This document shows, piece by piece, positions 11,405 through 61,903 of a stretch of 64,000 nucleotides of DNA (position 1 is its first letter; every line of letters begins with the position of its first letter). The DNA comes from a virus (taxonomy: Duplodnaviria; Heunggongvirae; Uroviricota; Caudoviricetes). The stretch is from the IMG/VR virus record IMGVR_UViG_2698536476_000008. One strand, 5' to 3'. The translations under genes were made by a program, and so were the position numbers. The notes beneath the pieces are model-generated. The model saw nothing but the letters and a program-made list of their open reading frames with translations, did not search any database and was not told the DNA's origin.

Positions 11405-11420
11405 ATGCTCTAATAAATTT
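11405..11420 (+). promoter_or_regulatory. C1-operator-like site (ATGCTCTAATAAATTT)
   Basis: Match to recalled P1 C1 operator consensus ATTGCTCTAATAAATTT; lies upstream of icd-ant locus. Confidence 0.55.
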
Positions 11421-11589
11421 GTATTTTTAAGTCACGAATGCTATCTTTTCACATCATATTGACCTTTTAATCGTTCAGGCTTATAGTTCCGCCGTCGTAG
11501 CAAATTCTGCGACCGGGTTTAGCAGCCTGAATACTTACGCGGACAACCGCAGATTTCCGATATTGCGGTATTTTTGTGTCCGTAAACCA

Positions 11590-11670
11590 CGTTACGCCCG
11601 AATTATGGTGGGGCGTGATGGGGAGGCTTCGGCCTGCTGGTTTCGTAAGTGCCAGTCTGCTAACCCCGTC
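11590..11670 (+). ncRNA. Candidate c4-like immunity RNA (coordinates approximate)
   Basis: Block TATGGTGGGGCGTGATGGGGAGGCTTCGGCCTGCTGG conserved with 62083-62125, with compensatory changes around a TTCG-loop hairpin; sits between operator and icd as in P1 immI. Confidence 0.35.
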
Positions 11671-11732
11671 ACGTCCTGCCACCTGTTTAGCAGCGGGTCG
11701 CAGGTTGTTTATCAACTTACGAGGCCGTAACT

Positions 11733-11954
11733 ATGGTTAATGCCAATCCTTGCGCACGCCAAGAATTCATCTGGCGGTTCTATTCCTGTAAAAAACACCA
11801 CTATCACTTCGTTATCGCAGCAACAGAAGACGAAGCACGCTCTCAATTGCCTGATGGCCCCTGCATTTTTACTGCCCGTTTTTCAACTAACTCGCGCAAT
11901 TCACTTAGTTACTGGAGCCTCCCCTTCTCTGCCGACGTTCAGGGGGGTTTATGA
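11733..11954 (+). CDS. icd: Icd-like small protein (73 aa), overlaps ant start
   Basis: 73-aa ORF ending in ATGA overlap with ant; paralog at 62222-62443. Confidence 0.55.
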   Translation: MVNANPCARQEFIWRFYSCKKHHYHFVIAATEDEARSQLPDGPCIFTARFSTNSRNSLSYWSLPFSADVQGGL

Positions 11955-12994
11955 AAAAACCTCTCGTCACCCGTAATGACATAGCCGAAGCGATCGCCCT
12001 GCATACTGCCTGTATGCCGACACGGGAGATCCCCGGCGCAATTGCCAACTATTTCATGATAACCAGACGTTTTTATACCCGAACAGATAAGGCTGTGATC
12101 AACAAGCTACTGATAGCCGAGATCAGGGATTATTTGATTGAACAAGGACGTCTACGTTACGCAACAGTGGCAGCAGAAATGAGAAAGGAGGCACATAGAA
12201 TGACCGGTAATAATTTGAATGTTGAAAAAACAGCACCTGTTACGTCAGCTACGCCAGCACCAGCCGTGAATATCATCCCCAACACCGGAGACACAATCGA
12301 CAGCCTGACACTGTTAAAGATGGTCAATGAAGCGCGTAAGTTATGTGGGGAACCAGAGGTTCGGAACAACAAATTCATCGAAAAAATACTCGACGAATTA
12401 GAAGGTGAGGACGGTTACACAAAAAGTGCAACCGTGCCGCCAGGTGGCGGTACGCCTATGGTTGTCATAACCATGACCTACAAACAAGCCCTGCGAGTCG
12501 CCGCACGCGAATCAAAAGCCGTCCGCCGTTCGCTGATCGACAAACTGGAAGAATTGCAGCAGGCAAACTCCCCTGCCCCATCGATCCCCCAAACATTACC
12601 AGAAGCTCTACGCCTGGCTGCCGAGTTGGCAGAACAGAAAATGCAGCTGGAACAACAGCTGGTGGCCGCAGCCCCTAAAGTCGATTTTGCCGACCGGGTA
12701 TCAGTGGCCAATGGAATCCTGATCGGGAACTTTGCAAAGGTCGTTGGACTTAAGCAAAACGCCCTTTTCTCATGGTTGCGCCAGAACGGCATTCTCATGG
12801 CTTTTGGTGCGCGCAAAAACGTACCGCGCCAACAGTACATCAACGCCGGGTATTTCACGGTGAAAGAAGTGGTGCTGGATGATGAAAATGGCTACCAGAT
12901 ACGGCTGACGCCCCAATTAACGGGTAAAGGCCAGCAGTGGTTAACTCGCAAGCTACTTGATGCTGGTTTGTTAAAACCAGTAGCAATAGGTTAA
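11951..12994 (+). CDS. ant: Antirepressor Ant (347 aa) with C-terminal KilAC-type domain
   Basis: C-terminal PKVDFADRVSVANGILIGNFAKVVGLKQNALF...GYFTVKEVVLDDENGYQIRLTPQLTGKGQQWLTRKLLDAG. Confidence 0.75.
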   Translation: MKKPLVTRNDIAEAIALHTACMPTREIPGAIANYFMITRRFYTRTDKAVINKLLIAEIRDYLIEQGRLRYATVAAEMRKEAHRMTGNNLNVEKTAPVTSATPAPAVNIIPNTGDTIDSLTLLKMVNEARKLCGEPEVRNNKFIEKILDELEGEDGYTKSATVPPGGGTPMVVITMTYKQALRVAARESKAVRRSLIDKLEELQQANSPAPSIPQTLPEALRLAAELAEQKMQLEQQLVAAAPKVDFADRVSVANGILIGNFAKVVGLKQNALFSWLRQNGILMAFGARKNVPRQQYINAGYFTVKEVVLDDENGYQIRLTPQLTGKGQQWLTRKLLDAGLLKPVAIG

Positions 12995-13007
12995 CAAAAG
13001 AAAAAAA

Positions 13008-13033
13008 CCTGCCAGCAAACTGGCAGGTTTCTG
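13008..13033 (+). terminator. Rho-independent terminator after ant
   Basis: Stem CCTGCCAG/CTGGCAGG with CAAAC loop followed by TTTCTG. Confidence 0.5.
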
Positions 13034-13071
13034 AGCAGATCGTCCAACCCGATCTGGATCGAATCAGAAAA

Positions 13072-13089
13072 ATTTGCTCTAATAAATTT
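13072..13089 (+). promoter_or_regulatory. C1-operator-like site upstream of kilA-repL
   Basis: TTTGCTCTAATAAATTT. Confidence 0.6.
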
Positions 13090-13158
13090 CGTTTTCTAAG
13101 TGCAAAGAATCACCATTTCGAGCTGGTGATTGAAGGTTGATGCAAATTTGGAGAAAAA

Positions 13159-13959
13159 ATGCAACAAACATTCAATGCGGATATGAATATATCAAACCTT
13201 CATCAAAATGTCGATCCTTCAACCACTCTGCCCGTTATTTGTGGTGTTGAAATTACGACCGACCGCGCTGGCCGTTACAACCTTAATGCTCTACACAGAG
13301 CGAGCGGACTCGGTGCCCATAAAGCGCCAGCTCAATGGCTAAGAACGCTGTCAGCCAAACAGCTCATCGAAGAGCTTGAAAAAGAAACTATGCAGAATTG
13401 CATAGTTTCGTTCGAAGGCCGTGGCGGCGGCACTTTTGCCCATGAATTGCTCGCAGTGGAGTACGCAGGCTGGATTTCTCCCGCGTTTCGGCTGAAGGTA
13501 AACCAGACATTTATCGACTATCGAGCCGGAAGATTACAACCTGCTATTCCGAAGAGCCTCCCAGAAGCTCTCCGTTTGGCTGCTGACCTGGCAGAGCAAA
13601 AGCAACGGCTGGAGCAAAAAATGCTGATGGATGCACCTAAAGTCGAATTCGCCGAACGCGTTGCTACCGCCAGCGGGGTTCTAATCGGCAACTATGCCAA
13701 AGTGCTCGGCCTGGGCCAAAACTATCTCTTCACCTGGTTGCGTGATAACGGAATTCTGATCGCAACCGGTGAACGCAGGAACGTCCCCAAACAAGAATAC
13801 ATATCCCGTGGGTATTTCACCCTTAAAGAAACCGTGATCGATACAAGCAATGGAAGCAGGATTTCTTTCACGACTCGTATAACCGGCAAAGGTCAGCAGT
13901 GGCTGATGAAGCGATTGCTTGATGCTGGTGTGCTGGTACCTGTCGCGGCAACGCGCTAA
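13159..13959 (+). CDS. kilA: KilA (266 aa): KilA-N domain plus KilAC antirepressor-type C-terminus
   Basis: N-terminal ...ITTDRAGRYNLNALHRASGLGAHKAPAQWL...; C-terminal domain shared with Ant; size as recalled for P1 KilA. Confidence 0.7.
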   Translation: MQQTFNADMNISNLHQNVDPSTTLPVICGVEITTDRAGRYNLNALHRASGLGAHKAPAQWLRTLSAKQLIEELEKETMQNCIVSFEGRGGGTFAHELLAVEYAGWISPAFRLKVNQTFIDYRAGRLQPAIPKSLPEALRLAADLAEQKQRLEQKMLMDAPKVEFAERVATASGVLIGNYAKVLGLGQNYLFTWLRDNGILIATGERRNVPKQEYISRGYFTLKETVIDTSNGSRISFTTRITGKGQQWLMKRLLDAGVLVPVAATR

Positions 13960-13988
13960 CAGACGTAGTAAGAACCACCAGCATTGTA

Positions 13989-14834
13989 ATGCTGGCTAAA
14001 GTCACTTTCCTGAGCTGTATAACGATGAGCGATTTTACTTTTTCTGGCTATGAATTGGCCTGCTTTGTAACACACTCCGGTCTATCCCGTAGCGCCGGGC
14101 ATATCCTGTCGCAATGTGCAAATCTAGCGGCAACAACCAGTGAATACTTCATTCACAAGCCTCACCGCCTGATCGCGGCAGAAACTGGTTATAGCCAATC
14201 AACCGTCGTTCGTGCATTCCGTGAAGCTGTAAACAAAGGAATTCTGTCTGTAGAGATTGTTATCGGCGATCACCGTGAACGTCGCGCTAACCTGTACCGG
14301 TTTACACCATCCTTTTTGGCCTTCGCACAACAAGCCAAAAATGCGCTGATTGAAAGCAAATTAAAGATCTCTTCAGCGGCAACCAAGGTTAAAGCTGTTC
14401 TCGCTAAGACATTGGCTTTATTTAATTTTTTATCCACACCCCCATGTCAAAATGATACCCCCTCCCCCTGTCAGGATGACGTGGCAATAAAGAATAAGAA
14501 GTCACAAGTTAAAAAAACAAAAAGATCAGTTTCCGGCGGTGCCGGAACGACCAGACTCAAAAAATTGACTTCATGGATCGCTGAGGCAAAAACAAAGGCT
14601 GACAATCTGCGGTTATCCAAAAAACGCGCTCAAAAACATGAGTTCAAGCAGAAAGTAGAGGCGGCAGCGCGGAAATATGCTTACCTGAAGAACAAGCGTT
14701 CTCCTGATATTGGCGGGGTATCAAACTTCGATAATCTGCCGCATTGCATGACGGTAAACGAAGCTCTTAATGCGGTTTTAGCCAAAAATAAAGATAACGA
14801 ACAATGGGGTATACCGGCAGGATTCAGAGGGTGA
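13989..14834 (+). CDS. repL: RepL lytic replication protein (281 aa)
   Basis: HTH ETGYSQSTVVRAFREAVNKGIL; size and position after kilA as in P1. Confidence 0.7.
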   Translation: MLAKVTFLSCITMSDFTFSGYELACFVTHSGLSRSAGHILSQCANLAATTSEYFIHKPHRLIAAETGYSQSTVVRAFREAVNKGILSVEIVIGDHRERRANLYRFTPSFLAFAQQAKNALIESKLKISSAATKVKAVLAKTLALFNFLSTPPCQNDTPSPCQDDVAIKNKKSQVKKTKRSVSGGAGTTRLKKLTSWIAEAKTKADNLRLSKKRAQKHEFKQKVEAAARKYAYLKNKRSPDIGGVSNFDNLPHCMTVNEALNAVLAKNKDNEQWGIPAGFRG

Positions 14835-15130
14835 TAGATTGCTCTAATCTGGAGTCACCTGGCGTTTTCAGTTTGAGGTCGGAGATGCAATCTGATTTTT
14901 TACAGTTAGCGATCGCTTTTGCAGGATATGTTTGTATTGGCTTCTGTGTATACATGATCAGCCGAAAAATGCTTGTCGATATCGACCGCAAAGAACAAGC
15001 AGAGGAGATCTTAGTATGGATTTTCTTTGGCGCGGTCTGGCCATTAGGGATCATGTTTGCTGCAACATTTCTTCTGATGTGGATATTCACCCTTCCTGGT
15101 GATTTCTATAGAAAAAAAGCCAGACATTGA
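14804..15130 (+). CDS. Small membrane protein (start likely at internal Met near 14885)
   Basis: Two hydrophobic segments in translation; overlaps repL end if started at 14804. Confidence 0.4.
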   Translation: MGYTGRIQRVIDCSNLESPGVFSLRSEMQSDFLQLAIAFAGYVCIGFCVYMISRKMLVDIDRKEQAEEILVWIFFGAVWPLGIMFAATFLLMWIFTLPGDFYRKKARH

Positions 15131-15253
15131 TACAATCGTTGCGGGTGCTTGAGGCTATCTGCTTCAGGCATTACCCGAAAAGCAGATAGAAGAAAGCCCC
15201 AGATAACATCACGCGTCCTGCAAGACGCTTAACATTAATCTGAGGCCATATCT

Positions 15254-15460
15254 ATGCTTAGCATACGTAGATTAGCCTCTTACCGACCAAAAGGTCAAGG
15301 AGAAGTAGGCTATGAAGCAGCAAAAAGCGATGTTAATCGCTCTGATCGTCATCTGTTTAACCGTCATTGTGACGGCACTGGTAACGAGGAAAGACCTCTG
15401 CGAGGTACGAATCCGAACCGGCCAGACGGAGGTCACTGTCTTCACAGCCTACGAATCTGA
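15254..15460 (+). CDS. mok-like overlapping reading frame upstream of and overlapping hok
   Basis: 68-aa ORF in a different frame overlapping the hok-like gene, as in hok/mok/sok loci. Confidence 0.35.
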   Translation: MLSIRRLASYRPKGQGEVGYEAAKSDVNRSDRHLFNRHCDGTGNEERPLRGTNPNRPDGGHCLHSLRI

Positions 15461-15467
15461 AAGGTAA
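15312..15467 (+). CDS. hok: Hok/Gef-family type I toxin (51 aa)
   Basis: Verified codon by codon: MKQQKAMLIALIVICLTVIVTALVTRKDLCEVRIRTGQTEVTVFTAYESER; AGGAG 7 nt upstream; Hok family signature TRK.LCE.R....EV..F.AYES. Confidence 0.85.
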   Translation: MKQQKAMLIALIVICLTVIVTALVTRKDLCEVRIRTGQTEVTVFTAYESER

Positions 15468-15540
15468 GAGACCTGGCGGGGAGAGATCTCCGCCACTCTT
15501 CGTGTGTCAGGTATCCTCAATGCACCCTTTCCTCTCCAAA

Positions 15541-15567
15541 TAAAAAAGCTCCCGAAGGAGCTTTAAA
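15541..15567. terminator. Bidirectional Rho-independent terminator
   Basis: AAAAAAGCTCC-CGAA-GGAGCTTTAAAA between convergent hok and the 169-aa gene. Confidence 0.6.
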
Positions 15568-15583
15568 ATACAAGGGATGACTC

Positions 15584-16093: not shown

Positions 16094-16104
16094 ATAAAAT
16101 CCTT

Positions 16105-29298: not shown

Positions 29299-31313
29299 AA
29301 GAGCTGTGCTATGGATCTGTTTGCAGTGGAATTGAAGCCGCGAGTATTGCCTGGGAACCGTTGGGTATGCGTCCGGCGTGGTTTGCTGAAATCGAGCCTT
29401 TTCCATCTGCCGTTCTTGCGCACCGCTGGCCCCATGTCGCCAACCTTGGCGACATGACAAAACTTGCCAAAAAAGTCCTGGCTGGGGAAATCGAATCCCC
29501 TGATGTGCTCGTCGGGGGTACGCCTTGTCAGGCATTCAGTATCGCGGGCTTACGTGGTGGGCTTGATGATGAACGCGGCGCGCTAACTTTGAAGTATGTG
29601 GAGCTTGCAAATGCAATTGACGACAAACGGTCTGAGTCCTTCCTCAAACCGACAGTTATCGTCTGGGAAAATGTCCCAGGAGTCCTGTCATCGGCAGATA
29701 ACGCCTTCGGATGTTTCCTTGCCGGATTGGCTGGAGAAGATGCGCCATTTGAACCAGGTGATCGACCTGAATCAGGAAAAAGTAACGCGTTCTGGCGGTG
29801 GGATGGCAAAACCGGTTGCCATGCTCCAAAGTGGCCGCAGTGTGGTTGTATTTATGGACCGCAGCGAAAGGTGGCCTGGAGAATCCTTGATGCCCAATAC
29901 TTCGGAGTGGCACAACGACGCCGACGCGTGTTTGTTGTCGCAAGTGCTCGAACAGACCTCGATCCCGCAACGGTACTTTTTGAGTTCGAAGGCGTGCGCC
30001 GGAATATTGCGCCGAGCAGAGGCGAGGGGAAGGAAACTACCAGATATACTTCAAACATCGCTATCAGATCTTGCGATGATACAAACATAGTTGCCATGGC
30101 ACATGGGCAAGGAGGGGCTGAGATAAAAACCGATAATTCGGCACCAACTTTGACATGTAACCATGAAGCACCAATTGTATTGCTCGTCGACGGTAGAATG
30201 CGCCGTCTTATCCCTGTCGAATGTGAAAGGCTGCAAGGTTTTCCTGATGGACATACATTGATCCCTACGGAAAAGCGTAAAAAAGTTTCTTCAGATGAAC
30301 TGGCATACCTTCGCAAAAACTATCCTGATTTGAGCGAAGAAGAGGCCGCGATGCTTGCAGCTGACGGACCGCGTTACAAAGCGATCGGCAATAGTATGGC
30401 GATACCAGTAATGCGCTGGATTGGCGATCGGATTGCCAAGGCTGCATGTCGGCAGAAGGAAGGGAGTGAAACAAAAGAGCGAAAAGTTAAACCAGCGGCA
30501 GAATTCGAACGGTCCATATTCAAATGGGCTGGTGGAAAATTTGGTGTTCTGGAACAAATCTTTCGCTATTTGCCAGAAGGGAAGCGCCTGATTGAGCCTT
30601 TCGTTGGTGGCGGAGCTGTCTTCATGAATGCCGGATACCAGGAAAATCTGCTAAATGATGTGAATGCTGACCTGATTAACTTTTACAAGACTCTGCAACG
30701 CGAGGCGCATTCACTTATCACTCTGGCACATCGTTTCTTCCAGGACTACAACACGCAGGAAGGATACCTGGCAGTACGGAATGCGTTTAACAAACAAGTC
30801 TATGATGATTTACATCGCGCAGCGGCGTTTTTGTTCCTGAACCGACATTGTTTTAACGGATTGACGCGTTACAACCAAGCCGGTGAGTTCAATGTCGGTT
30901 ATGGGAAGTATAAAACTCCGTATTTCCCATTGCAGGAGATGGAAGCCTTCCTTGGTGCGGAAGGGCGTTCTGAGTTTGTATGTGGTGATTTTGCTGCGGT
31001 GATTGAAGCTGCCGGAGAAGGAGATGTCATCTTTTGTGATCCGCCGTATGAACCGCTCCCAAATACAGAGGGATTCACGAACTATTCCGGTCATGACTTT
31101 AAGTTTGAAGAGCAAAAACGCCTGGCGTCTCTGTTGACGGATGCTCATCGCCGAGGTGCAAAGGTTCTCATTACTAACAGTGGCGCGCCAAACATCAGAG
31201 AACTTTATCAGGACAGTGGCTTCAGAGTGGAACCTCTTTTTGCCAGACGTTCTGTGTCTTGTAAGGGGGACACTCGAGGTGTTGCTCATGACGTTATAGC
31301 AATATTGCTCTAA
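29295..31313 (+). CDS. dmt: Bifunctional DNA methyltransferase (C5-cytosine domain fused to Dam-like N6-adenine domain)
   Basis: GTG start overlapping hrdC stop; [12 protein letters not shown] and ENVPG (C5-MTase) in N-half; FKWAGGK and DPPY (N6-adenine MTase) in C-half. Confidence 0.85.
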
Positions 31314-31331
31314 TAAATTTATTAGTGTAAT
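31304..31331. promoter_or_regulatory. Bipartite (inverted, overlapping) C1-operator-like site
   Basis: ATTGCTCTAATAAATTT followed by inverted half AAATTTATTAGTGTAAT; overlaps dmt stop. Confidence 0.65.
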
Positions 31332-32923: not shown

Positions 32924-33070
32924 AATGCGGCTAAGCGCACGCGGGGAAATGGTTATATCAGTCCATTCATTTCTCCTTGTTTCCCCGTCCACGGTGGATA
33001 ACCAGCCAAAGGACACCGGGAGGCACCCGGCACCGCAGCTTTTTTATTCGTTAAATAATGGAGTGAGAGG

Positions 33071-33307
33071 ATGCAGAACAATTCGAACAAATGTCGAACG
33101 CTATGGGTGCGGTTATATATTTATGCCGTCCTCTGTTTGATTGTGTCACTGGTTCTGTATGTTTGGCTTTTGCCAAATATGATCTCATCTAACAGCACAA
33201 TACTTGTATTGTTGGGAGTCCTTCTCGCGCTCATTTACCCGGCTTTCGCAGTAGTCTTTTTTCGTGAAAAAACCAGGAAATTAATTAATGAAAAAAACGT
33301 TGATTAG
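33071..33307 (+). CDS. Small two-TM membrane protein (78 aa)
   Basis: Hydrophobic segments; overlaps start of SPFH gene. Confidence 0.5.
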   Translation: MQNNSNKCRTLWVRLYIYAVLCLIVSLVLYVWLLPNMISSNSTILVLLGVLLALIYPAFAVVFFREKTRKLINEKNVD

Positions 33308-34115
33308 TGCAGCGATTATTTTGGGTTCTTTATGTCTGACCGGATGCGATCGGGTAGAGCCAGGTAACGTAGGGATCAAAGTAAATAAGCTGGGGGATGA
33401 TAAAGGTATCGGTGAAGTAGTTGGCGTTGGTCGCTACTGGACAGGCTTGAATACTGAAGTTTATATCTTCCCGACCTTTAAGCAAATGAAGACATACGAT
33501 GAGCCGTTCAGCTTCCAGATGAGCGACGGAACAACCATTGGTTACCACATCGGCGTAGCCTACAAGGTTGATCCAGCAAAAGTCACAACGGTATTTCAGA
33601 CCTATCGCAAAGGTGTAGATGATATTACTGATACCGATCTACGCCAGAAGGTTGCAGATGCTCTGAACCGGTTAGCCAGCAAAATGACCACCGACAAATT
33701 TATCGACGGTGGCAAATCTGAATTGCTTGATGCAGCCCTTAAAGACATTCAGGAAGAAATGACGCCAATCGGCATTCAGGTGATGAGCCTCTCTTATGTA
33801 GGTAAGCCAGAATACCCGCCAACAGTTATTGACAGTATTAACGCCAAAGTCACGGCAAACCAAAAAACCCTGCAACGCGAGCAAGAGGTCAAACAACGTG
33901 AAGCAGAGGCCAACATGCTGCGCGCGGAAGCTGCCGGACAGGCTGATGCTATTCGCACAAAAGCCCAGGCCGAAGCTGATGCCATTCGTTTACGTGGTGA
34001 AGCTCTGCGCCAGAACCCCGGTGTTATGGAGTTGGAAGCGATCAACAAATGGAACGGTACATTACCGCAGTATATGACCAGTAATACCGCTGTTCCGTTT
34101 GTTCCGGTGAAATAA
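33288..34115 (+). CDS. SPFH/band-7-like lipoprotein (275 aa)
   Basis: Signal peptide with lipobox LTGC; C-terminal Ala/Glu/Arg/Gln-rich coiled coil; family assignment by pattern only. Confidence 0.55.
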   Translation: MKKTLISAAIILGSLCLTGCDRVEPGNVGIKVNKLGDDKGIGEVVGVGRYWTGLNTEVYIFPTFKQMKTYDEPFSFQMSDGTTIGYHIGVAYKVDPAKVTTVFQTYRKGVDDITDTDLRQKVADALNRLASKMTTDKFIDGGKSELLDAALKDIQEEMTPIGIQVMSLSYVGKPEYPPTVIDSINAKVTANQKTLQREQEVKQREAEANMLRAEAAGQADAIRTKAQAEADAIRLRGEALRQNPGVMELEAINKWNGTLPQYMTSNTAVPFVPVK

Positions 34116-34142
34116 AAGCGTAAGCAAAATTGGCAGTAATCC

Positions 34143-34498: not shown

Positions 34499-35869
34499 GT
34501 GCTAATGTCTGCATCCCCTCTTGAATCCATGCCAAATTCCCTTAGTGCAGAACAAGCTGTACTTGGTGGCTTAATGCTTGATAACTGCCGCTGGGATGAA
34601 GTTGCAGATCGTATAGTTGCTGATGATTTTTATACCAGTGCTCATCGTGAAATTTTCAGTGAGATGGAGAGGTTATTAAGTCATGGCAAACCGATTGATT
34701 TGATAACACTTGCTGAAGCACTTGAACAGAACGGTAAATTAGAACGCGCCGGTGGTTTTGCGTACCTTGCGGAGATGTCAAAGAACACGCCCAGCGCGGC
34801 AAATATTTGTGCTTATGCGGATATCGTTCGTGAACGCGCGGTTGTTCGTGAAATGATTTCCGTCGCAAATGAAATAGCCGAAGCTGGATATGCGCAGGAT
34901 GGCAGGGGCAGCAATGAATTGCTGGATATGGCCGAGCGCCGCGTTTTTGAAATAGCTGAAAAACGACAAAAGAGCGGTAGTGGTCCAAAAGATATCGCCA
35001 GCATTCTCGATGCAACGGTATCTCGCATAGAAGAGTTGTTTCAGCGACCACATGATGGTGTAACGGGGCTTGATACGGGATTTACCGATATCAATAAGAA
35101 GACGGCAGGGCTTCAGCCGTCCGATCTCATCATTGTCGCCGCCCGCCCATCTATGGGGAAGACCACGTTTGCGATGAATCTCGTCGAAAATGCCGCAGTT
35201 CGTAACGATAAGCCCGTATTGGTTTTTAGCCTTGAGATGCCGAGCCACCAGCTGATGATGCGCTCACTGGCTTCTCTTGCACGCGTTGATCAGACTCGTA
35301 TTCGGACAGGGCAACTTAACGACGAGGATTGGGCGCGGGTTTCTGGCGCAATGGGTATTCTGTTGGACAAGCAGAATATTTTTATTGATGACTCAAGCGC
35401 CCTGACACCTACAGAGCTTCGTTCCCGCGCTCGTCGTGTTTATAAAGAAAATGGTGGTTTGAGCATGATTATGATCGACTACCTGCAACTTATGCGCGTC
35501 CCCGAGCTGCAAGATAACCGAACGCTGGAAATTGCCGAGATTTCTCGCTCACTGAAGGCGTTGGCGAAGGAATTACAAGTACCGGTGGTGGCATTGTCAC
35601 AACTTAATCGATCGCTTGAACAGCGTGCGGACAAACGACCGGTAAATTCAGATTTACGTGAATCAGGAGCAATTGAGCAGGACGCAGACCTGATCATGTT
35701 TCTGTATCGCGACGAAGTTTATCACCCGGATAGCGAAATGAAGGGCATTGCCGAGGTAATTATCGGAAAGCAACGAAATGGCCCAATTGGCACGGTGAGA
35801 TTGGCTTTTAACGGCCAATACTCACGGTTTGATAACTATGCTGGTGCTGACTGGCAAGAGGATTATTAA
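34499..35869 (+). CDS. ban: DnaB-family replicative helicase (Ban-like)
   Basis: Walker A AARPSMGKTTFAMN; DnaB C-terminal motifs LIMFLYRDEVY, GKQRNGPIG. Confidence 0.85.
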   Translation: MLMSASPLESMPNSLSAEQAVLGGLMLDNCRWDEVADRIVADDFYTSAHREIFSEMERLLSHGKPIDLITLAEALEQNGKLERAGGFAYLAEMSKNTPSAANICAYADIVRERAVVREMISVANEIAEAGYAQDGRGSNELLDMAERRVFEIAEKRQKSGSGPKDIASILDATVSRIEELFQRPHDGVTGLDTGFTDINKKTAGLQPSDLIIVAARPSMGKTTFAMNLVENAAVRNDKPVLVFSLEMPSHQLMMRSLASLARVDQTRIRTGQLNDEDWARVSGAMGILLDKQNIFIDDSSALTPTELRSRARRVYKENGGLSMIMIDYLQLMRVPELQDNRTLEIAEISRSLKALAKELQVPVVALSQLNRSLEQRADKRPVNSDLRESGAIEQDADLIMFLYRDEVYHPDSEMKGIAEVIIGKQRNGPIGTVRLAFNGQYSRFDNYAGADWQEDY

Positions 35870-51383: not shown

Positions 51384-51899
51384 ATGGCGTTAACACACCG
51401 CGAACTCTGTCAAATTGCGTACAAGTTCCTTAAGCGCAACGGGTTCAAGGTTTGTTTTCATGACCGCTTTATAGCTGTAACCAGTACCGGAGAACAGCCA
51501 GATGCTATGGGGTTCAGAAATTCAGCATCATGCCTGATAGAGGCGAAGTGTTCTCGTGCTGACTTGTTGGCAGATAGAAAAAAGCGTTTCCGTAAAAATC
51601 CCTCACTTGGCATGGGCGACTGGCGATTCTTTATTAGTGAGCCGGGAATTATTTCAATTGAGGATTTACCACCTGGCTGGGGATTACTTCACGTTGTTAA
51701 CGGAAGAGTACGGAAAGTACATGGGTGGCCCAAGGGTAATTGCTGTTGGGGTAATCCTGACGATAAGCCATTTACTGGAAATAAGCAGGTTGAATGCGAT
51801 TACATGTTATCTGCATTAAGGCGCATGGAGTTGAGAGGGCACCTTAATGAAATATATGACGGTGTAATTGTTAATAAGAAAGAAGGAAACGCGGCATGA
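51384..51899 (+). CDS. PD-(D/E)xK-type nuclease-like protein (171 aa)
   Basis: ATG 51384 with AAAGGAGAG upstream; EQPD...IEAKCS motif. Confidence 0.45.
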   Translation: MALTHRELCQIAYKFLKRNGFKVCFHDRFIAVTSTGEQPDAMGFRNSASCLIEAKCSRADLLADRKKRFRKNPSLGMGDWRFFISEPGIISIEDLPPGWGLLHVVNGRVRKVHGWPKGNCCWGNPDDKPFTGNKQVECDYMLSALRRMELRGHLNEIYDGVIVNKKEGNAA

Positions 51900-53200
51900 T
51901 CACTATTACCAAAGAGCGACTGCTGACAATCAAGCAGTGGCGCGAAACATACGGACCTGGTAGCAACGTTGTACTGCCAGCAGAAGAAGCGGAAGAGCTG
52001 GCACGGATTGCTCTGGCATCGCTGGAAGCAGAACCGGTGGCATGGACTGATGAAGAGGAACTGCGCGATGTCAGGAAGTATGGTTTCGGTGAGATATTTC
52101 AGTGTCCGCCAGATAAATATGCGGACCCGCGTCGTGTAATCTCGCTGTATCGCGAGCTGCCAGCACCGGTAGTGCCAGATGATTGGCAACTCGTACCTAA
52201 GAAAATAACACTGGAAATGGAATGTGCTCTATCAAAAGCTGATAGCTATGAAATTGGTTGGCTATGGGCATTGGCAGCCGCACCTAAATACGAAGTACAG
52301 AACGCTAAACGCGTGCAAAACGCGCTTAACGCCTGCCGCGCCGCCATGCTTCAGTCCGGAAACTTTCGGGAAAACAAGAATTCGTCAACCAATAATTTTC
52401 GGGAAATCGCGGAAACGTCAACCAACTATCCGGCAATTCCTAGTGAGGTGTTGTCCGCAATCCTGAAGGTTGCCAGGATTCGTGCCGATTTCGATGATTT
52501 TGACGGTGACAGGCGAGGTATCGGTGATTGTCTGGATGAGGCTGAGCAAGAGCTTATCGTTACCATTAACAAATATGCCAGTCAGTTGGCAGCAGAACCG
52601 ATAGCGACTAATGACGTTCGAGAGCAGCAGACAGCCGTTCCGCCAGTTCCGGAAATACAGGATGATGTCGCGCAAGCAATTGAAAATCTCAAGCAGAAGT
52701 TAGTGGAATGCAATCGCTATAACTACTGCGCAGATGCAGTTAAAGGCGTAGAGGATGCCTGCCACGCTGCCATGCTTCAGGGTAGCCAACCTGTAAGCCA
52801 AACTTACAAGTTGCCAGTTAATACACCTTGCCAAGATGCGCCAGCCCATATCTGGCTGCAAACGGCTGGAGTATGGCCAGAAGATGGCGAGTTAAGCGAA
52901 TTAACGTGGTGCAGCCACAATCAGCACCATGATGACACGCTATATGTTCGAGCTGACCTTGTGAATGGCAACTATCCGGTAACTCCGGATAGTTGGATAA
53001 GCTGTAGTGAGCGAATGCCGGATACCAAAACAGCCGTTCTTGTTGCCGTGGAGTTTGACAGGAAAGGTGACTGGCGAATGAAATGGGCGACTTACATCCC
53101 GGGTCATCCTGACGCTAATGATGGGTGGATAATTCCTGGTGCGTCGTGGAAACCGTCACACTGGATGCCGCTACCAGAACCGCCGCAGGAGGCGAAATGA
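51896..53200 (+). CDS. Protein with DUF551-like C-terminus (434 aa)
   Basis: C-terminal ...DGWIIPGASWKPSHWMPLPEPP. Confidence 0.5.
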   Translation: MITITKERLLTIKQWRETYGPGSNVVLPAEEAEELARIALASLEAEPVAWTDEEELRDVRKYGFGEIFQCPPDKYADPRRVISLYRELPAPVVPDDWQLVPKKITLEMECALSKADSYEIGWLWALAAAPKYEVQNAKRVQNALNACRAAMLQSGNFRENKNSSTNNFREIAETSTNYPAIPSEVLSAILKVARIRADFDDFDGDRRGIGDCLDEAEQELIVTINKYASQLAAEPIATNDVREQQTAVPPVPEIQDDVAQAIENLKQKLVECNRYNYCADAVKGVEDACHAAMLQGSQPVSQTYKLPVNTPCQDAPAHIWLQTAGVWPEDGELSELTWCSHNQHHDDTLYVRADLVNGNYPVTPDSWISCSERMPDTKTAVLVAVEFDRKGDWRMKWATYIPGHPDANDGWIIPGASWKPSHWMPLPEPPQEAK

Positions 53201-53457
53201 TGGATGTAAAAGAGAAGGTTTTGCAGGTGATGCGTTCCCGGGCTGCCCTGCAAGATAAAGCTCTCGGCGGGGAATATCCATTCAGGATGGCAACCTGGAA
53301 TCTGCGGTTGGCAATGGAGAAGGAATTTCCTGATGAAGAATGGCGTTCGGCAGATTTGCGCAAAATTCTTATGGAGCTGGCTAAAGATGGAACAGTATCC
53401 AAAGATACCCATGCCAGCCGGATTGGTCAGGCGGTATGGAGACTGGAGGTGAGGTAA
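53197..53457 (+). CDS. Small hypothetical protein (start at internal Met)
   Basis: ATGA overlap with upstream stop. Confidence 0.4.
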   Translation: MMDVKEKVLQVMRSRAALQDKALGGEYPFRMATWNLRLAMEKEFPDEEWRSADLRKILMELAKDGTVSKDTHASRIGQAVWRLEVR

Positions 53458-53533
53458 TAAGCTGGCCTGAAGCATTTGCGATTGTAGGCGTAGCTATGGC
53501 GATTGCCGCTATTTTTATCTTCTGGGGGTAGCG

Positions 53534-53767
53534 ATGGGAAAATTAACTTTTGTAGTCGAATTTGAGGATGGCAAAGAGCCACCTGTTAGCGCCAATCTTG
53601 ATGTTGCTGGTGGCAGGCTGGTTTCGGTTCTATTTGGTGATTACCGCGACGACTTCTTTCAGCCTGAAGAAGTTGATGTAGTGCGAGAAGCATTAAACGA
53701 GCTAAGTGTTGATAACGATGATGCTCATGCGGAAATCATCAAAAAAATGGAACTGCTAACTCACTAA
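53534..53767 (+). CDS. Small acidic protein (77 aa)
   Basis: ORF track. Confidence 0.4.
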   Translation: MGKLTFVVEFEDGKEPPVSANLDVAGGRLVSVLFGDYRDDFFQPEEVDVVREALNELSVDNDDAHAEIIKKMELLTH

Positions 53768-53815
53768 ATTATCAATTATGGTGCTATCACCTACGACACC
53801 GAGAGAAAATTTATA

Positions 53816-53938
53816 ATGTCAAAAGTAAATGTTTTGATTTTTTCAGCAATTGTTGGCTTTGGTTTTACTGCCGGAGTGCAGATTTATATTACGTGGGAAA
53901 AAATCATCAACTACGCATGGAGTTGTTTTATTAAGTGA
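53816..53938 (+). CDS. Small hydrophobic peptide (40 aa)
   Basis: Verified translation MSKVNVLIFSAIVGFGFTAGVQIYITWEKIINYAWSCFIK. Confidence 0.3.
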   Translation: MSKVNVLIFSAIVGFGFTAGVQIYITWEKIINYAWSCFIK

Positions 53939-53945
53939 GGTAAGT

Positions 53946-54239
53946 ATGTGGAGAGGTAATAATCATGGCAAAAGCCAGATGATACTTACCGAATATAAGC
54001 TAGACCACAAAACCAATAAATCACGCTCAGTATATTTGCTCCGGCACAATAGCCGCGTAAGAAATACCGTGCTGGAACAAAATCTGACAGTTGAAATGGA
54101 TAATTGCGGGGGATTCAAGCCAACAATTTCGCTTGATGATTTTCCTCGTGGTTTAAGCGAAAGAGAAGCAATGCTGAAATTAGCAGAATGGCTACAAAGA
54201 TTAAGCATTGCTATTGAAGATAACTGGTCTGAACCTTAA
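53946..54239 (+). CDS. Hypothetical protein (97 aa from internal Met)
   Basis: ORF track frame; TGAGGT before ATG. Confidence 0.4.
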   Translation: MWRGNNHGKSQMILTEYKLDHKTNKSRSVYLLRHNSRVRNTVLEQNLTVEMDNCGGFKPTISLDDFPRGLSEREAMLKLAEWLQRLSIAIEDNWSEP

Positions 54240-54245
54240 ATTTAT

Positions 54246-54620
54246 ATGATGACACTAAAACATTTTCTTGACCGCCCATTATGGGCGGCAGCCGCAGGCT
54301 ATGACTTTAATTATATGGATTGCATGTCTTATACTGCCAATGCATACGACCATTCGTTCATCCTGCTGTTTAATTCTTTAAGAATATTGCCGGAAACAGA
54401 AGTTGGAGAGCTTCATTTATGGCTATTGGGCTTTATCGCGGCTGTCGTTGGTATTGCTGTATGGCCTTTTATTTTCTGGCTGGTGGCTGTTGTAGTGTGG
54501 TTTAAGTGCAAGACATACCGGAAAAAGTATTTCTTAGGTGATGGAATGACTGATATTGCCAAAATGAACATTGAAGAATGGACTAAGGAATGTGAAAAGA
54601 AATGGCGCAAAAAGAAATGA
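54246..54620 (+). CDS. Membrane protein (124 aa)
   Basis: Hydrophobic segment LWLLGFIAAVVGIAVWPFIFWLVAVVVWF. Confidence 0.45.
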   Translation: MMTLKHFLDRPLWAAAAGYDFNYMDCMSYTANAYDHSFILLFNSLRILPETEVGELHLWLLGFIAAVVGIAVWPFIFWLVAVVVWFKCKTYRKKYFLGDGMTDIAKMNIEEWTKECEKKWRKKK

Positions 54621-55252
54621 CCAGAATCACTGAAGAGCGCATATCAGAGATTATTTCCCGTATCGAAATGTATGGTCACGGTGCTGGATATACGGCAGAT
54701 GAAGTATTGGAAATAGCCCAGCAGATGCTGGCCTTGAGACAAAAAGAGCAACATGAAAGTAATACGTGTAGATTGAATTTTGAGCATTGGCTGGAACAGC
54801 AACGCGGAAAAATCGATGTGGACTGTGGTTGTGTGTCCACTGAAACATTCATGCACTGGCTGCGGGTAGCTTACGAGGCTGGCAACTATCCGGATATTCC
54901 GGATAGTTCGGTGCCAGCGCCAGGAAAGGGCGTCACCGGTGAACGTATCCGCATTAAGCCGCATGTTTATCGCGAACTGGTTAACCGTCTCCACGATACA
55001 GCGATCAAGTGTGCTGGCACCCAGCAATTACGAGAAAGAATTAGCCGTGTTTTGGGCGACGTTATTACACCAGATCATCATAAACAAGCCGAGAAAAGTG
55101 ACCTGGAAAGGTGTCACCTTGAGGCGGCATTAAACATTAAGCCGGGGCATACGCTTGGCATTATTGATGCACTATTGGTTCATAAGATGGCCAGGGCTTT
55201 ATTGCCGCTGGTGGCTGAAAAGCATGAGGTGGACCATGCCAACGAAAGCTGA
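54602..55252 (+). CDS. Hypothetical protein (216 aa)
   Basis: ORF track. Confidence 0.45.
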   Translation: MAQKEMTRITEERISEIISRIEMYGHGAGYTADEVLEIAQQMLALRQKEQHESNTCRLNFEHWLEQQRGKIDVDCGCVSTETFMHWLRVAYEAGNYPDIPDSSVPAPGKGVTGERIRIKPHVYRELVNRLHDTAIKCAGTQQLRERISRVLGDVITPDHHKQAEKSDLERCHLEAALNIKPGHTLGIIDALLVHKMARALLPLVAEKHEVDHANES

Positions 55253-55525
55253 ATTACAGGTGCGCGTAGATGAGCTGAAAAAGAGAACGCGAGCCTCAAA
55301 AAAATGCTGTCGCGGGCGGAAAGGGAATTATCAGGCAAATTATTGCCAGAAGAACTGCCACCAGCAGATATACTAGATCGAGTGTCCCAGTGGATGAAGT
55401 CTTTTGGTTTACCGTGGGAGGCTTTTGGTGCTACGACCATCGCAGATGGTGTGATGAACTTGATAGCAATTTTCCCTACTTTGCGGAAGGGAACACCTGC
55501 CCTCAATGCAGGGGATAGCATTTGA
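55236..55525 (+). pseudogene. Small coiled-coil gene interrupted by a frameshift at an A7 tract
   Basis: ATG 55236 (GAGGTGG upstream) reads MPTKAELQVRVDELKKRTRASKK then A7 at 55298-55304; the +1 frame continues MLSRAERELSGKLLPEEL... to 55525. Confidence 0.35.
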
Positions 55526-55853
55526 CGAAATCGATCACCCTATCCTGAACTTCAGAAAGAAGGTCTTTTTCACGCGCCAGGACGTCAGGATATTGACGTT
55601 CTGGCCTTACCAGATGCCGGAACTTCCCATTAAGCAGAATGGCCTCAGAAAACACTTTTACGCTGTGCTTTATCCCCTCTGTTTCACTTTTCAGCGTCAA
55701 AATAAAGCGCAATTGCTTATTAGCCTGATTCGGATTCAATACACGAATTTGCAGTTCGTCTATGCTGTTTCGCAATGGGATTGATGCCACCACACTGGTG
55801 CAGTCTCTGATTGTCTGAATTGAACGGCTAACATTGAGAACGTTATTGTGCAT
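55503..55853 (-). CDS. Hypothetical protein (116 aa), lone minus-strand gene
   Basis: ORF track. Confidence 0.4.
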   Translation of the reverse strand: MHNNVLNVSRSIQTIRDCTSVVASIPLRNSIDELQIRVLNPNQANKQLRFILTLKSETEGIKHSVKVFSEAILLNGKFRHLVRPERQYPDVLAREKDLLSEVQDRVIDFVKCYPLH

Positions 55854-55885
55854 GTGCCTGATCCACTAACTCCTGGAGGTTTCTT

Positions 55886-56137
55886 GTGTCAGATCGAAAT
55901 ATAGCAGCTAAAAGCCAGGAAGAGCGAGACAAGGTGAACGTAGACCTTGCCGCCAGCGGCGTTGCTTACAAAGAACGGCTGAATATACCTGTGATTGCAG
56001 AGCAGGTGGCCCGTGAGCAACCGGAAAACCTGCGCGCCTATTTCATGGAACGGCTACGGCACTACCGGCAGTTAAGCCTCCAGTTGCCAAAAGGGAGCGA
56101 TCCGGTGTATCAGAACGAGGATGCACCAAAAAAATAA
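55886..56137 (+). CDS. hot: DNA polymerase III theta-subunit homolog
   Basis: [46 protein letters not shown] resembles E. coli HolE as recalled. Confidence 0.7.
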
Positions 56138-56224
56138 CGGCAAGATGGGGGAGAAATGTGATTAGCCCCCAGCGTGGCGCGCCTACAAACCCCGCTTTCA
56201 CAAACTATGCCTTTTCAATGTATA

Positions 56225-56713: not shown

Positions 56714-56722
56714 GAGGTGTTT

Positions 56723-57508: not shown

Positions 57509-57535
57509 AGCCCAATCAGTGATTAAAGGTGTGAT

Positions 57536-58579: not shown

Positions 58580-58580
58580 A

Positions 58581-58597
58581 ATTGCTCTAATGTATTG
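58581..58597 (+). promoter_or_regulatory. C1-operator-like site upstream of lpa
   Basis: ATTGCTCTAATGTATTG. Confidence 0.55.
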
Positions 58598-58667
58598 CTA
58601 TTTCTTTAATCGATGGTATTATATTCCACGTTGATTAGTTGACATGGGCTAATCAGTAGGTGACAGG

Positions 58668-59120
58668 ATGTTACTTAACTGGCAGGGACGCCACTTCATG
58701 GAAATAAATCACTCACGAATAACATCGTACGAGATTGCGAATTACATGATCCGCACTAAATCTCTTCTATCAGCGAAAGAACTCGCAGCAATTCTTGAAA
58801 AGGAATACCCGCATCTGGATGTCGATAAGCGCGACGTTTATCTGCGCTTAAAGGCTATCGCTGTGTCTAAGTATTCGTCTGTTTTGATTGATGACAGTAC
58901 ACGCCCACGTAGATTTCAGATCCACTCTCTGAATCCTGAATTCTTTCGCCGCAGCCGCGCGCCGCGCCGGTTTGATGAAAAACTCCAGAACGAACTCTAT
59001 ATGACGCAGGACGAAAAGGAACGCCGGGAACACCAGCCTTGGGTAATGGCGCGTCAACTTTTCAATAAGGTAGCCCGTCAGCACCGTCATTACGGTAATG
59101 CCACATCCGCACGTATCTGA
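58668..59120 (+). CDS. lpa: Late promoter activator Lpa-like protein (150 aa)
   Basis: Position immediately upstream of pacA and behind a C1-operator-like site, as recalled for P1. Confidence 0.55.
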   Translation: MLLNWQGRHFMEINHSRITSYEIANYMIRTKSLLSAKELAAILEKEYPHLDVDKRDVYLRLKAIAVSKYSSVLIDDSTRPRRFQIHSLNPEFFRRSRAPRRFDEKLQNELYMTQDEKERREHQPWVMARQLFNKVARQHRHYGNATSARI

Positions 59121-59205
59121 TTGATTGCTTGCCCGTTCCGGGCCTTTTGACATGTGACTTTCGTTACCCTCGCGTCAAAAAGAGTTTTTACGAAAGGAAG
59201 CATAA

Positions 59206-60399
59206 GTGACCTGGGACGATCACAAGAAGAATTTTGCTCGCCTGGCGCGAGATGGTGGTTACACCATCGCACAGTATGCCGCCGAGTTTAATCTTAACCC
59301 TAATACCGCACGTCGTTATCTCCGTGCCTTCAAAGAAGACACCAGGACAGCGGACAGCCGCAAGCCAAATAAGCCAGTCAGGAAGCCACTAAAAAGCATG
59401 ATCATTGATCACTCTAATGATCAACATGCAGGTGATCACATTGCGGCTGAAACAGCGGAAAAACAAAGAGTTAATGCCGTTGTCAGTGCCGCAGTCGAGA
59501 ATGCGAAGCGCCAAAATAAGCGCATAAATGATCGTTCAGATGATCATGACGTGATCACCCGCGCCCACCGGACCTTACGTGATCGCCTGGAACGCGACAC
59601 CCTGGATGATGATGGTGAACGCTTTGAATTCGAAGCTGGCGATTACCTGATAGATAACGTTGAAGCGCGGAAGGCCGCGCGCGCTATGTTGCGTCGGTCC
59701 GGGGCCGATGTTCTGGAAACCACTCTTCTGGAAAAGTCTCTTTCTCATCTCCTTATGCTGGAGAACGCCAGGGATACGTGTATTCGCCTGGTGCAGGAAA
59801 TGCGCGATCAGCAAAAAGACGATGATGAAGGTACTCCGCCTGAATACCGTATCGCGAGCATGCTAAACAGCTGTTCCGCGCAGATAAGCAGTCTGATCAA
59901 CACCATTTACAGCATCCGGAATAACTATCGAAAAGAAAGCCGGGAGGCGGAAAAGCACGCTTTGTCTATGGGGCAAGCTGGCATTGTTAAGCTGGCATAT
60001 GAACGAAAGCGTGAAAATAACTGGTCAGTGCTGGAAGCAGCTGAATTCATCGAGGCGCATGGTGGGAAAGTTCCGCCCCTGATGCTGGAGCAAATCAAAG
60101 CCGATCTGCGTGCTCCTAAGACCAATACCGATGATGAGGAAAGGCAAACAGCCGTCGGTGGCCCTTCTCTTGACGATCTGGACAAAGTTGCGCGAGAACG
60201 GGCCGCCAACCGCCGCGCCGATGCCGCATTGTGGATTGAGCAGCGTAGGGAAGAAATCGCCGATATCGTTGATACAGGCGGTTATGGAGATGTTGATACT
60301 GAAGGTGTATCAAACGACCCATGGCTGGAACAAGACCTGGACGAAGACGAGGAGGAAGACGAAGAAGTTACCCGCAAGCTATACGGGGATGATGATTAA
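59206..60399 (+). CDS. pacA: Terminase small subunit PacA (397 aa), GTG start
   Basis: AAAGGAAG upstream of GTG; contains pac hexamer clusters; acidic C-terminus; size as recalled for P1 PacA. Confidence 0.85.
59399..59585. other. pac: pac packaging site: two clusters of TGATCA/G hexamers
   Basis: TGATCA at 59399, 59406, 59418, 59433; TGATCG/TGATCA at 59529, 59541, 59552, 59580. Confidence 0.8.
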
Positions 60400-61883
60400 T
60401 GGCCAGAAGTTGCGTAACGGATCCTCGTTGGCGCGAGCTGGTGGCGCTATATCGTTATGACTGGATTGCTGCCGCTGATGTTTTGTTCGGCAAAACACCT
60501 ACCTGGCAGCAGGATCTGATTATTGAGTCTGTGCAGGAACAGGGTAGCAAGACATCTGTTTCGTCTGGTCACGGTACCGGGAAATCAGACATGACTTCTA
60601 TCATGATCATGTTGTTCATAATCATGTATCCCGGTGCCCGCGCCATTATCGTTGCGAACAAAATTCAGCAGGTAATGACCGGTATATTCAAGTACATCAA
60701 GATAAACTGGGCTACTGCCACCAGCCGTTTTCCATGGCTTGCTGATTATTTTGTTCTGACAGAAACCGCTTTCTATGAGGTTACTGGTAAAGGTGTATGG
60801 ACTGTAGTACCGAAGGGCTTTCGTCTGGGAAGTGAAGAAGCTCTCGCCGGTGAACACGCAGATCATCTTCTGTATATTATCGATGAAGCCTCCGGTGTCA
60901 GTGATAGAGCTTTCGGTATCATCACCGGTGCTCTTACCGGACAGGATAACCGCATCTTATTACTGTCACAGCCTACACGCCCAAGCGGCTATTTCTACGA
61001 TACTCACCATAAACTGGCCAAGCGTCCTGGTAACCCAGATGGCGTTTATACGGCGATCACGCTTAACAGTGAGGAATCACCGCTGGTAACGCCAGAATTT
61101 ATCAAAATGAAGCTGGCGGAGTACGGCGGGCGTGATAACCCTATGTACATGATTAAGGTGCGCGGCCTATTCCCTAAATCACAGGACGGCTTCCTTCTTG
61201 GACGTGATGAGGTTGAACGTGCAACGCGGCGGAAAGTTAAGATTGCCAAAGGATGGGGCTGGCTTGCATGTGTGGACGTTGCTGGTGGTACGGGACGGGA
61301 TAAGTCAGTTATCAATATCATGATGGTGTCCGGCCAGCGAAATAAACGCCGTGTAATCAACTATCGAATGCTGGAATACACAGACGTTACAGAAACGCAG
61401 CTTGCCGCCAAAATTTTCGCAGAATGTAATCCTGAGCGATTCCCCAATATCACCATAGCGATAGATGGCGATGGCCTGGGTAAAGCAACAGCGGATCTGA
61501 TGTACGAGTATTATGGTATTACCGTACAGCGTATACGCTGGGGTAAAAAGATGCATAGCCGTGAAGATAAGAGCCTGTACTTTGATAAACGTGCTTATGC
61601 CAACGTTCAAGCCGCAGAGGCCGTAAAATCTGGTCGTATGAGACTGGATAAGGGTAATGAAACTATTGAGGAAGCGTCGAAAATCCCTGTAGGGATTAAC
61701 TCCGCAGGTCAATGGAAGGTGATGAGTAAGGAGGATATGAAGAAAAAACTCAACCTGCACTCACCAGACCATTGGGATACATATTGTTTCGCTATGCTGG
61801 CGGATTATGTTCCCCAGGATGAAGTGCTTAGCGTCGAAGACGAAGCGCAGGTTGATGAAGCTCTGGCATGGCTTAATGAATGA
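60399..61883 (+). CDS. pacB: Terminase large subunit PacB (494 aa)
   Basis: Walker [10 protein letters not shown]; size as recalled for P1 PacB. Confidence 0.85.
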
Positions 61884-61886
61884 ATA

Positions 61887-61903
61887 TTTGCTCTAATAAA
61901 TTG
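61887..61903 (+). promoter_or_regulatory. C1-operator-like site upstream of second icd-ant locus
   Basis: TTTGCTCTAATAAATTG. Confidence 0.6.

Follow-up and report, generated by a model that had tools for sequence, protein, structure and literature searches.

In bacteriophage P1, the repressor C1 binds 17-bp asymmetric sites, each occurring singly or as part of an overlapping inverted pair, on or beside a sigma-70 promoter. The C1 operators of P1 and P7 have been catalogued (Op1 to Op99; Oref to Oc1e in the names of the P1 record NC_005856), and the part of PMC8546580 that quotes the P1 genome paper gives the operator as the 17-bp asymmetric sequence ATTGCTCTAATAAATTT and puts the number of operators at 22. 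Op51 belongs to the immI locus of these phages, in which an operator lies over an upstream promoter and is followed by a second promoter, the a1/b1 targets, the C4 antisense RNA, the a2/b2 targets and the coupled genes icd and ant. A related cassette, isrK-orf45-anrP, is found in the Salmonella prophage Gifsy-1, where the short, terminated IsrK RNA activates translation of the read-through transcript (PMC4825925). Here, a stretch of 64,000 nucleotides of viral DNA (IMG/VR record IMGVR_UViG_2698536476_000008; hereafter the window, meaning the whole stretch) was analysed for its C1-operator-like sites, with emphasis on the site at position 61887 and the genes that follow it.

The window aligned with P1 (NC_005856; megablast) in a single run of collinear blocks that are 93-99% identical and extend from P1 37153 to 93639, besides two short blocks at only 85-86% identity, and the 5 kb around its first sites were 97-99% identical to P1-like phages; judged by this collinearity, the window is a P1-like phage-plasmid. 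A position weight matrix (PWM) was built from the sites that NC_005856 labels 'phage repressor C1', 20 in number, with Omat, whose annotated strand is the reverse complement, re-oriented. When both strands were scanned, 12 sites scored at least 19 bits (range 19.2-27.4). Eleven of them are annotated P1 C1 operators, identical in sequence and in the same position in the gene order, and the twelfth, at 61887, is the sole strong site without a counterpart in P1 or P7 and the only independent match of the matrix. The repeated motif is thus very probably the C1 operator set of a P1-like phage-plasmid, with 61887 as a functional Op51 paralogue preceding a second immI-type module. The regulon of 11 shared sites is the catalogued, textbook C1 regulon of P1 and was already known, while the new item would be an uncatalogued operator together with a second, orthogonal immI-type antirepressor module predicted to stand under C1.

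The site at 61887 and the second immI-type module

The spacing between pacB and c1 is 24 bp in P1 and P7 and 1.7 kb in the window, where an insert occupies positions 61884-63590. This insert and the adjoining part of c1 contain the following features:

61887-61903, plus strand: C1 operator-like site, candidate Op51 paralogue, TTTGCTCTAATAAATTG, 21.5 bits, starting 4 bases past the pacB stop codon
61901-61929, plus strand: Pa, putative promoter, -35 TTGTGT (61901-06), 17-nt spacer, TGt-TACATT (-10 at 61924-29); the operator overlaps the -35, as in P51a
61942-61971, plus strand: Pb, putative promoter, -35 TTGCGC (61942-47), 18-nt spacer, TATGCT (61966-71); start near 61978, like P51b
61978-62055, plus strand: IsrK-like leader RNA (Rfam RF01394 isrK, 60.8 bits; gathering score 50)
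62004-10 and 62020-27, plus strand: a1 target TTGGCCT and b1 target GTCTAAGG, both within the IsrK-like leader
62034-62056, plus strand: intrinsic terminator in the IsrK-like leader (terminator scan)
62080-62167, plus strand: second C4 antisense RNA (Rfam RF01695, 75.9 bits; gathering score 45)
62124-31 and 62139-45, plus strand: loops of the second C4, b' CCTTGGAC and a' AGGCCAA
62172-78 and 62203-10, plus strand: a2 target TTGGTCT and b2 target GTCTAAGG, each pairing with its C4 loop with one G-U
62222-62443, plus strand: icd-like gene, 73 aa, 83% identical to the Icd of the first module of the window; relatives are annotated 'Icd-like'
62440-63558, plus strand: ant-like antirepressor gene, 372 aa, of the ANT/KilAC type (Pfam ANT 4e-31, ORF6N 2e-19)
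63591-64000, minus strand: 3' part of the repressor gene c1, cut by the window end

Op51 and the P51a promoter of immI can be aligned with the 61887 site and the 40 bases after it, base for base where the operator and the extended -10 are concerned. The two departures of the 61887 site from the consensus are both found in accepted operators, T1 in Op53 and G17 in Oref and Olpa. As for Pb, it aligns with the -10 TATATT that directly precedes isrK in D6 and in an Stx phage, the window version being the weaker one, and its predicted start is the 5' end of the Rfam isrK match, as for P51b in P1. The idea that the second module has no constitutive promoter of the P51b type was dropped after this alignment with D6 and the Stx phage had yielded Pb as a weak homologue.

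The cognate repressor is encoded by the same element as the operators, as the 3' part of c1 lies within the window. The last 126 aa of this C1 differ from P1 C1.100 in one residue, and the plasmid NZ_CP099352.1, which is identical to the window over 61700-63800, encodes a full-length C1 of 284 aa with 3 differences from P1 C1.100.

The canonical immI of the window is organized as follows:

11481-11533, plus strand: a1/b1 leader (Rfam c4-a1b1, 56.2 bits)
11601-11686, plus strand: C4 RNA (70.8 bits; gathering score 45)
11733-11954, plus strand: icd
11951-12994, plus strand: ant1/ant2

The whole layout known from the immI of P1 and P7 is repeated in the insert, including the operator over the upstream promoter, the second promoter, both target pairs on either side of C4, and the coupling of icd and ant. 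Compared with P1 and P7, the insert represents a second copy at pacB-c1, carries other recognition loops, and has an IsrK-type leader with an internal terminator, for which a short and a read-through isoform are predicted. The b2 target (target region 62172-62213) overlaps the ribosome-binding site AAGGAGG of the icd-like gene, the spacing of loops and targets resembles that of P1, and the stop codon of the icd-like gene overlaps the start of the ant-like gene in an ATGA at 62440-62443. The middle of the insert's Ant is replaced by an ORF6N domain, whereas the Ant2 start, that is, the internal Met84 that serves as such in P1, and the Ant C-terminus are conserved; the protein is 55% identical to the Ant1 of the window overall and about 93% identical over its last 135 aa. 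With such identity, above all at the C-terminus, the second Ant would be expected to inactivate C1.

The two modules of the window differ in their recognition elements. The canonical loops are a' CTGCTAA and b' TCGTAAGT, the latter also given as (T)CGTAAGT, with the targets TTAGCAG and ACTTACG(A) at 11519/11533 and 11687/11715. Within the canonical C4 region (11601-11721), a' is the same as in P7, and b' is unlike that of P1 (TCACTAAC) or P7 (TCACAATC). Both b targets carry changes matching the b' of the window, and the canonical immI looks like a third immI specificity. When the two modules of the window were compared, no loop of either matched a target of the other; since both loops and targets differ, each antirepressor module is predicted to be keyed independently of the other. 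The cassettes of RCS47, JL22, D6, an Stx phage and four plasmids fall into five alleles, and wherever the two loops change, the two sets of targets change with them; this three-way covariation of a1/a'/a2 and b1/b'/b2 supports the predicted pairings. In RCS47, operator and promoter are identical to those of the window, and the C4 allele is another one.

The cassettes of Gifsy-1 (PMC4825925) and of Stx and lambdoid phages share with the insert the isrK and C4 genes, the terminator in the leader, and a small open reading frame (ORF) followed by an antirepressor-type gene, and the nucleotide identity over isrK-C4 between the window and Stx phages is about 79%. In contrast to the insert, these copies lack a C1 operator and have the proximal promoter only, and the output in Gifsy-1 is the antiterminator AntQ, no counterpart of which is seen in the insert, though no search aimed at an AntQ homologue was made. 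The mechanism described for the Gifsy-1 IsrK fits the anatomy of the second module, and the P1 context suggests that the target of this module is C1 rather than an AntQ-type output.

Regarding the annotation of this region, the Pfam 'Ash protein family' matches the translation of isrK-C4 (61984-62260), and RefSeq ORFs named 'ash family protein' coincide with the C4 RNA gene in two other sequences (618-737 and 2713-2832), so that the 'ash' protein annotations have probably been placed over an RNA gene.

Plasmid records with the leader numbered 293 in PLSDB and came from Escherichia, Salmonella, Klebsiella, Shigella and Cronobacter, and the 2.1-kb pacB-to-c1 stretch was covered to at least 80% in 268 PLSDB records; the insert is also present in the phages RCS47, JL22 and 673R5. 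Genomic context was sampled with a conserved 19-mer of the leader as anchor, which gave at least 121 occurrences in at least 120 viral contig stretches. Among the matches listed, to which all counts in this paragraph refer, the operator was present at 16.3 bits or more in all 43 copies with P1-like flanks (pacB or the pmgC side of immI), always 96-103 bases 5' of the anchor, and in none of the 73 readable copies outside a P1 context, two further non-P1 occurrences being unreadable for want of sequence on the upstream side. In three seeming exceptions, similarity to P1 was confined to short stretches of about 760 bp; in one of the three, the stretch is IS1. Judged from these contexts, the cassette is widespread in temperate phages, and its operator is specific to P1-like elements. 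Because many of the copies are close relatives, this association is supporting evidence and not proof of function. In IMGVR_UViG_2698536372_000019 (1115-2699), two operator-leader copies lie about 1.6 kb apart, each after pacB-like sequence, which may reflect a tandem duplication or an assembly artefact.

The operator at 61887 could also be a passenger without a regulatory role that was copied with the cassette, the module being run by the downstream IsrK promoter and its own RNAs only. In other P1-like plasmids, a cassette of this type occupies the canonical immI locus and has an Op51-type site there, making a duplication possible, most copies of the cassette are very similar, non-P1 phages use it without any such site, and Pa is a weak consensus match. 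What makes a passenger unlikely is the pattern of conservation: one copy with a 75%-identical leader and an unrelated upstream flank retains the core TTGCTCTAAT, and Pa, with its -35 and extended -10, survives in a copy with a 75%-identical leader. The variation among the 43 listed copies is confined to the least constrained positions, 1 and 12, plus position 4 in one copy. Moreover, the homologous Op51/P51a is a working C1-controlled promoter in P1 according to annotation and established knowledge. We infer from this conservation that 61887 works as a paralogue of Op51 and places the second module under C1.

The shared operators and the mosaic junctions

The sites that the window shares with P1 have the same consensus, the same monovalent or bivalent arrangements, and the same positions and genes as in the P1/P7 network, from which the window differs by the reduction of Op55 to a half-site and by the extra operator at 61887, where P1 and P7 have the 24-bp spacer. 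Their adjacency to promoters follows from the P1 annotation.

11404-11420, plus strand: Oc4 (Op51 orthologue), AATGCTCTAATAAATTT, 25.6 bits, P1 48140-48156; upstream promoter of c4-icd-ant
13073-13089, plus strand: OrepL (Op53 orthologue), 23.9 bits, P1 49810-49826; kilA-repL, lytic replication
28028-28044, plus strand: Odmt (Op68 orthologue), 25.9 bits, P1 65145-65161; dmt operon
31304-31320, plus strand, and 31315-31331, minus strand: Obanab (Op72ab orthologue), bivalent, halves a and b overlapping by 6 bp, 27.4 and 23.2 bits, P1 68667-68694; ban operon
41738-41754, minus strand: O26 (Op82 orthologue), 24.8 bits, P1 78528-78544; 26/pmgL
42645-42661, minus strand: Oppp (Op83 orthologue), CATGCACTAATTAATTT, 20.1 bits, P1 79435-79451; ppp operon
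45362-45378, plus strand: OpmgRa (Op86a orthologue), 22.2 bits, P1 82152-82168; pmgR
45411-45427, minus strand: OpmgRb (Op86b orthologue), 21.1 bits, P1 82201-82217; pmgR
47503-47519, plus strand: OpmgT (Op88 orthologue), 26.0 bits, P1 84293-84309; pmgT
58581-58597, plus strand: Olpa (Op94 orthologue), 19.2 bits, P1 89904-89920; lpa, the late-promoter activator
14838-14854, plus strand: remnant of Orlf (Op55), ATTGCTCTAAT joined to CTGGAG, 5.5 bits

A first-pass annotation had proposed a C1 repressor regulon from a repeated motif. That motif turned out to be exactly the consensus quoted in PMC8546580, and both the matrix scan and the comparison with the catalogued P1 operators upheld the proposal, although four of the positions it gave were off by 1-3 bases, the others being exact. 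The site called bipartite at 31304 corresponds to the overlapping pair of Op72ab. The one called degenerate at 42642 exists as Op83, three bases further on, and is a good site by its score. The two sites described as an inverted pair around a terminator are Op86a and Op86b; an 11-bp hairpin does lie between them (45387-45414; -13.4 kcal/mol, z = -6.4), flanked by an A-run and, on the opposite side, a T-run, yet a simple terminator scan made no call there. The overlap of operators with upstream stop codons holds at 31304, where the stop codon of a dmt-like ORF (31311-31313) falls inside the Op72a half, and, by P1 coordinates, at 47503, where the pap stop touches the first base, but the sites at 45362, 58581 and 61887 and the remnant at 14838 each start 1-4 bases past a stop. 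This last half-operator was absent from the earlier list.

In Op55, the left 11 bases are kept, and the right part is replaced where P1 homology stops; the alignment ends at 14848, equal to P1 51585, inside the operator. Op55 is a half-site because hok/sok replaces rlfAB. In the corresponding region (14838-15542), a hok/sok toxin-antitoxin module stands in place of P1 rlfA/rlfB, with the sok RNA at 15143-15317 (112 bits) and a Hok/Gef ORF at 15312-15467.

Several observations concern sequences in or near the operators. Op83 has a weak partner half-site, CTTAAAATAATAAATTA (42634-42650, plus strand; 11.0 bits), with the same sequence in P1, where Op83 is annotated as monovalent. Its offset from Op83 is 11 bp, as in the bivalent Op72ab and Oc1ab, and it resembles the weak half Oc1b; its score is partly automatic, because the AAATTT overlap is palindromic. 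A T-rich tract (roughly GTnTTTTTAA) lies 1-12 bases 3' of most operators, for example at 11421-11432, 28045-28056, 47520-47531 and 61904-61914, and the conserved element may extend beyond 17 bp or include a shared promoter spacer. Applied to P1 itself (94.8 kb), the PWM recovered the annotated sites and gave only 3 unannotated matches of at least 13 bits. An operator-like sequence between cre and c8 was seen at P1 1485-1501 (ATTGCTATAATTATTTG; 18.1 bits), not annotated as a C1 operator in NC_005856, and at 10729-10745 of the related plasmid NZ_CP099352.1 (ATTGCTCTAATTCTTTG; 18.6 bits).

The ends of P1 homology were also considered in terms of module exchange, with the motif copies acting mainly or additionally as short conserved linkers for recombination. 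P1 homology breaks inside Op55 (14848) and 6 bases 5' of the 61887 site (61881), and a third break, at 10115, lies 2 bases past the late promoter LPsit. Seen as a series, homology ends near regulatory sites thus occur at 10113-10115, 14848 and 61881. We regard a linker role as quite improbable nonetheless: of the 18 homology ends that bound non-P1 gaps, just 2 coincide with operators, the P1 homology runs unbroken through ten operators, an identity of 11-17 bp is short for homologous recombination, and an operator function is established for P1.

Chance resemblance to an AT-rich word, as an explanation of the matches, can be set aside as refuted. The AT-rich right half of the motif is in part complementary to itself and makes weak partner matches such as that at 42634 automatic, but the 12 matches of at least 19 bits compare with a mean of 0.07 and a maximum of 1 per window in 300 first-order Markov simulations of the same dinucleotide content, the 11 matches to ATTGCTCTAATAAATTT with at most 3 mismatches compare with 0.32 expected and a top count of 2 in 100 shuffles, and a clear gap separates the strong sites (at least 19.2 bits) from the next best at 12.9 bits.

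Several points weigh against reading these sites as a working C1 operator set with 61887 as an Op51 paralogue. The PWM was trained on P1 operators, so the 11 orthologous matches reflect inherited sequence and are not independent evidence, and binding and repression by C1 at the listed sites are deduced from sequence. Op55 is broken, and its function as an operator is probably lost. At 61887, a generic promoter scan reported neither Pa nor Pb, and both, weak as matches to the consensus, owe their placement to homology only. The distant relative D6 carries the same cassette but lacks a matching operator site, and the motif would hence be specific to the P1/P7 type of C1 and not to the wider group. 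Most leaders in a P1 context are 95-100% identical, so that part of the conservation in the 43 listed copies reflects recent common ancestry. Finally, the window ends within c1 and does not include lxc, the gene of the co-repressor.

Regions of the window without P1 homology

The main stretches without P1 homology (megablast against NC_005856) are the following:

10115-11168: stretch without P1 homology
14849-15541: stretch beginning inside Op55
23442-25705: plasmid replication region
33037-34134: stretch without P1 homology
48392-54871: 6.5-kb insert within the pmgT operon, 3' of Op88
55214-56213: stretch without P1 homology
61882-63591: pacB-c1 insert

The PWM scan found no strong operator in 10115-11168, 14849-15541, 23442-25705, 33037-34134 or 48392-54871; weak matches of 9-13 bits occur, for example at 35859 and 54249. 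The replication region showed no megablast similarity to P1 incA/repA and encodes a divergent Rep3-type initiator (24614-25498, minus strand) and a T5orf172-domain protein (23512-24321, minus strand). The 6.5-kb insert bears two Ead/Ea22-like genes, a DUF551 gene and several ORFs without a Pfam family; lacking a separate operator, this insert may depend on Op88 for the control of its expression. At 10660-11334 (minus strand), where P1 has the sim genes, there are an ORF of 224 aa, with a weak phytase-like phosphatase match slightly under the Pfam cut-off, and an ORF of 158 aa without a family.

Control scheme and significance for P1-like elements

In a P1 lysogen, C1 is known to shut off the early and lytic operons; in the window these would be c4-icd-ant, kilA-repL, dmt, ban, 26/pmgL, ppp, pmgR, pmgT and lpa. 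Since lpa itself would be repressed, the late operons would be held off indirectly. The late promoters identical to those of P1 (LPs, LPsit, LP23, LP26, LPpmgL and LPpac, each with 0 mismatches; P1 coordinates from NC_005856) are located as follows:

1835-1853, minus strand: late promoter
10095-10113, minus strand: late promoter
20955-20973, minus strand: late promoter
41695-41713, minus strand: late promoter
41705-41723, plus strand: late promoter
59152-59170, plus strand: LPpac

The suggestion that operons without a recognizable site are under different control was confirmed by these six Lpa-dependent promoters: because they are present and lpa lies behind Op94 at 58581, the operator-free operons represent the known second tier of control.

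The second module would be controlled in three layers, by C1 at the DNA, by the intrinsic terminator in the IsrK-like leader, and by its own C4 acting over the ribosome-binding site of the icd-like and ant-like genes. This scheme presumes that Pa and Pb are active as promoters and that the second Ant acts as an antirepressor, as their homology would predict.

An ant gene inserted between pacB and c1 has been reported in pTZ20_1P and RCS47, with two short hypothetical ORFs and ant listed (PMC6906374). This is the same insert at the same locus, and the paper does not treat the operator, the RNA genes or their specificity. A literature search, incomplete and leaving an earlier description possible, found no analysis of the operator, RNAs or specificity of the pacB-c1 insert. 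The regulon scan itself adds little that is new and is useful mainly for the annotation of a P1 relative. The second module, which automatic annotation labels only as 'Icd-like', 'Ant' or 'ash family protein', is carried by P1-like plasmids that include carriers of resistance genes.

We tentatively propose, as a possibility held at somewhat less than even confidence, a two-lock immunity in which a C1-controlled second immI-type module is orthogonal to the canonical immI, several C4 alleles exist per locus, and the combination of alleles decides superinfection, induction and exclusion. If true, this would account for the retention of the module in roughly 270-290 PLSDB plasmids. Should the module work in the way outlined here, it would add a second antirepressor to the lysis-lysogeny switch and a second axis of heteroimmunity among P1-like elements.

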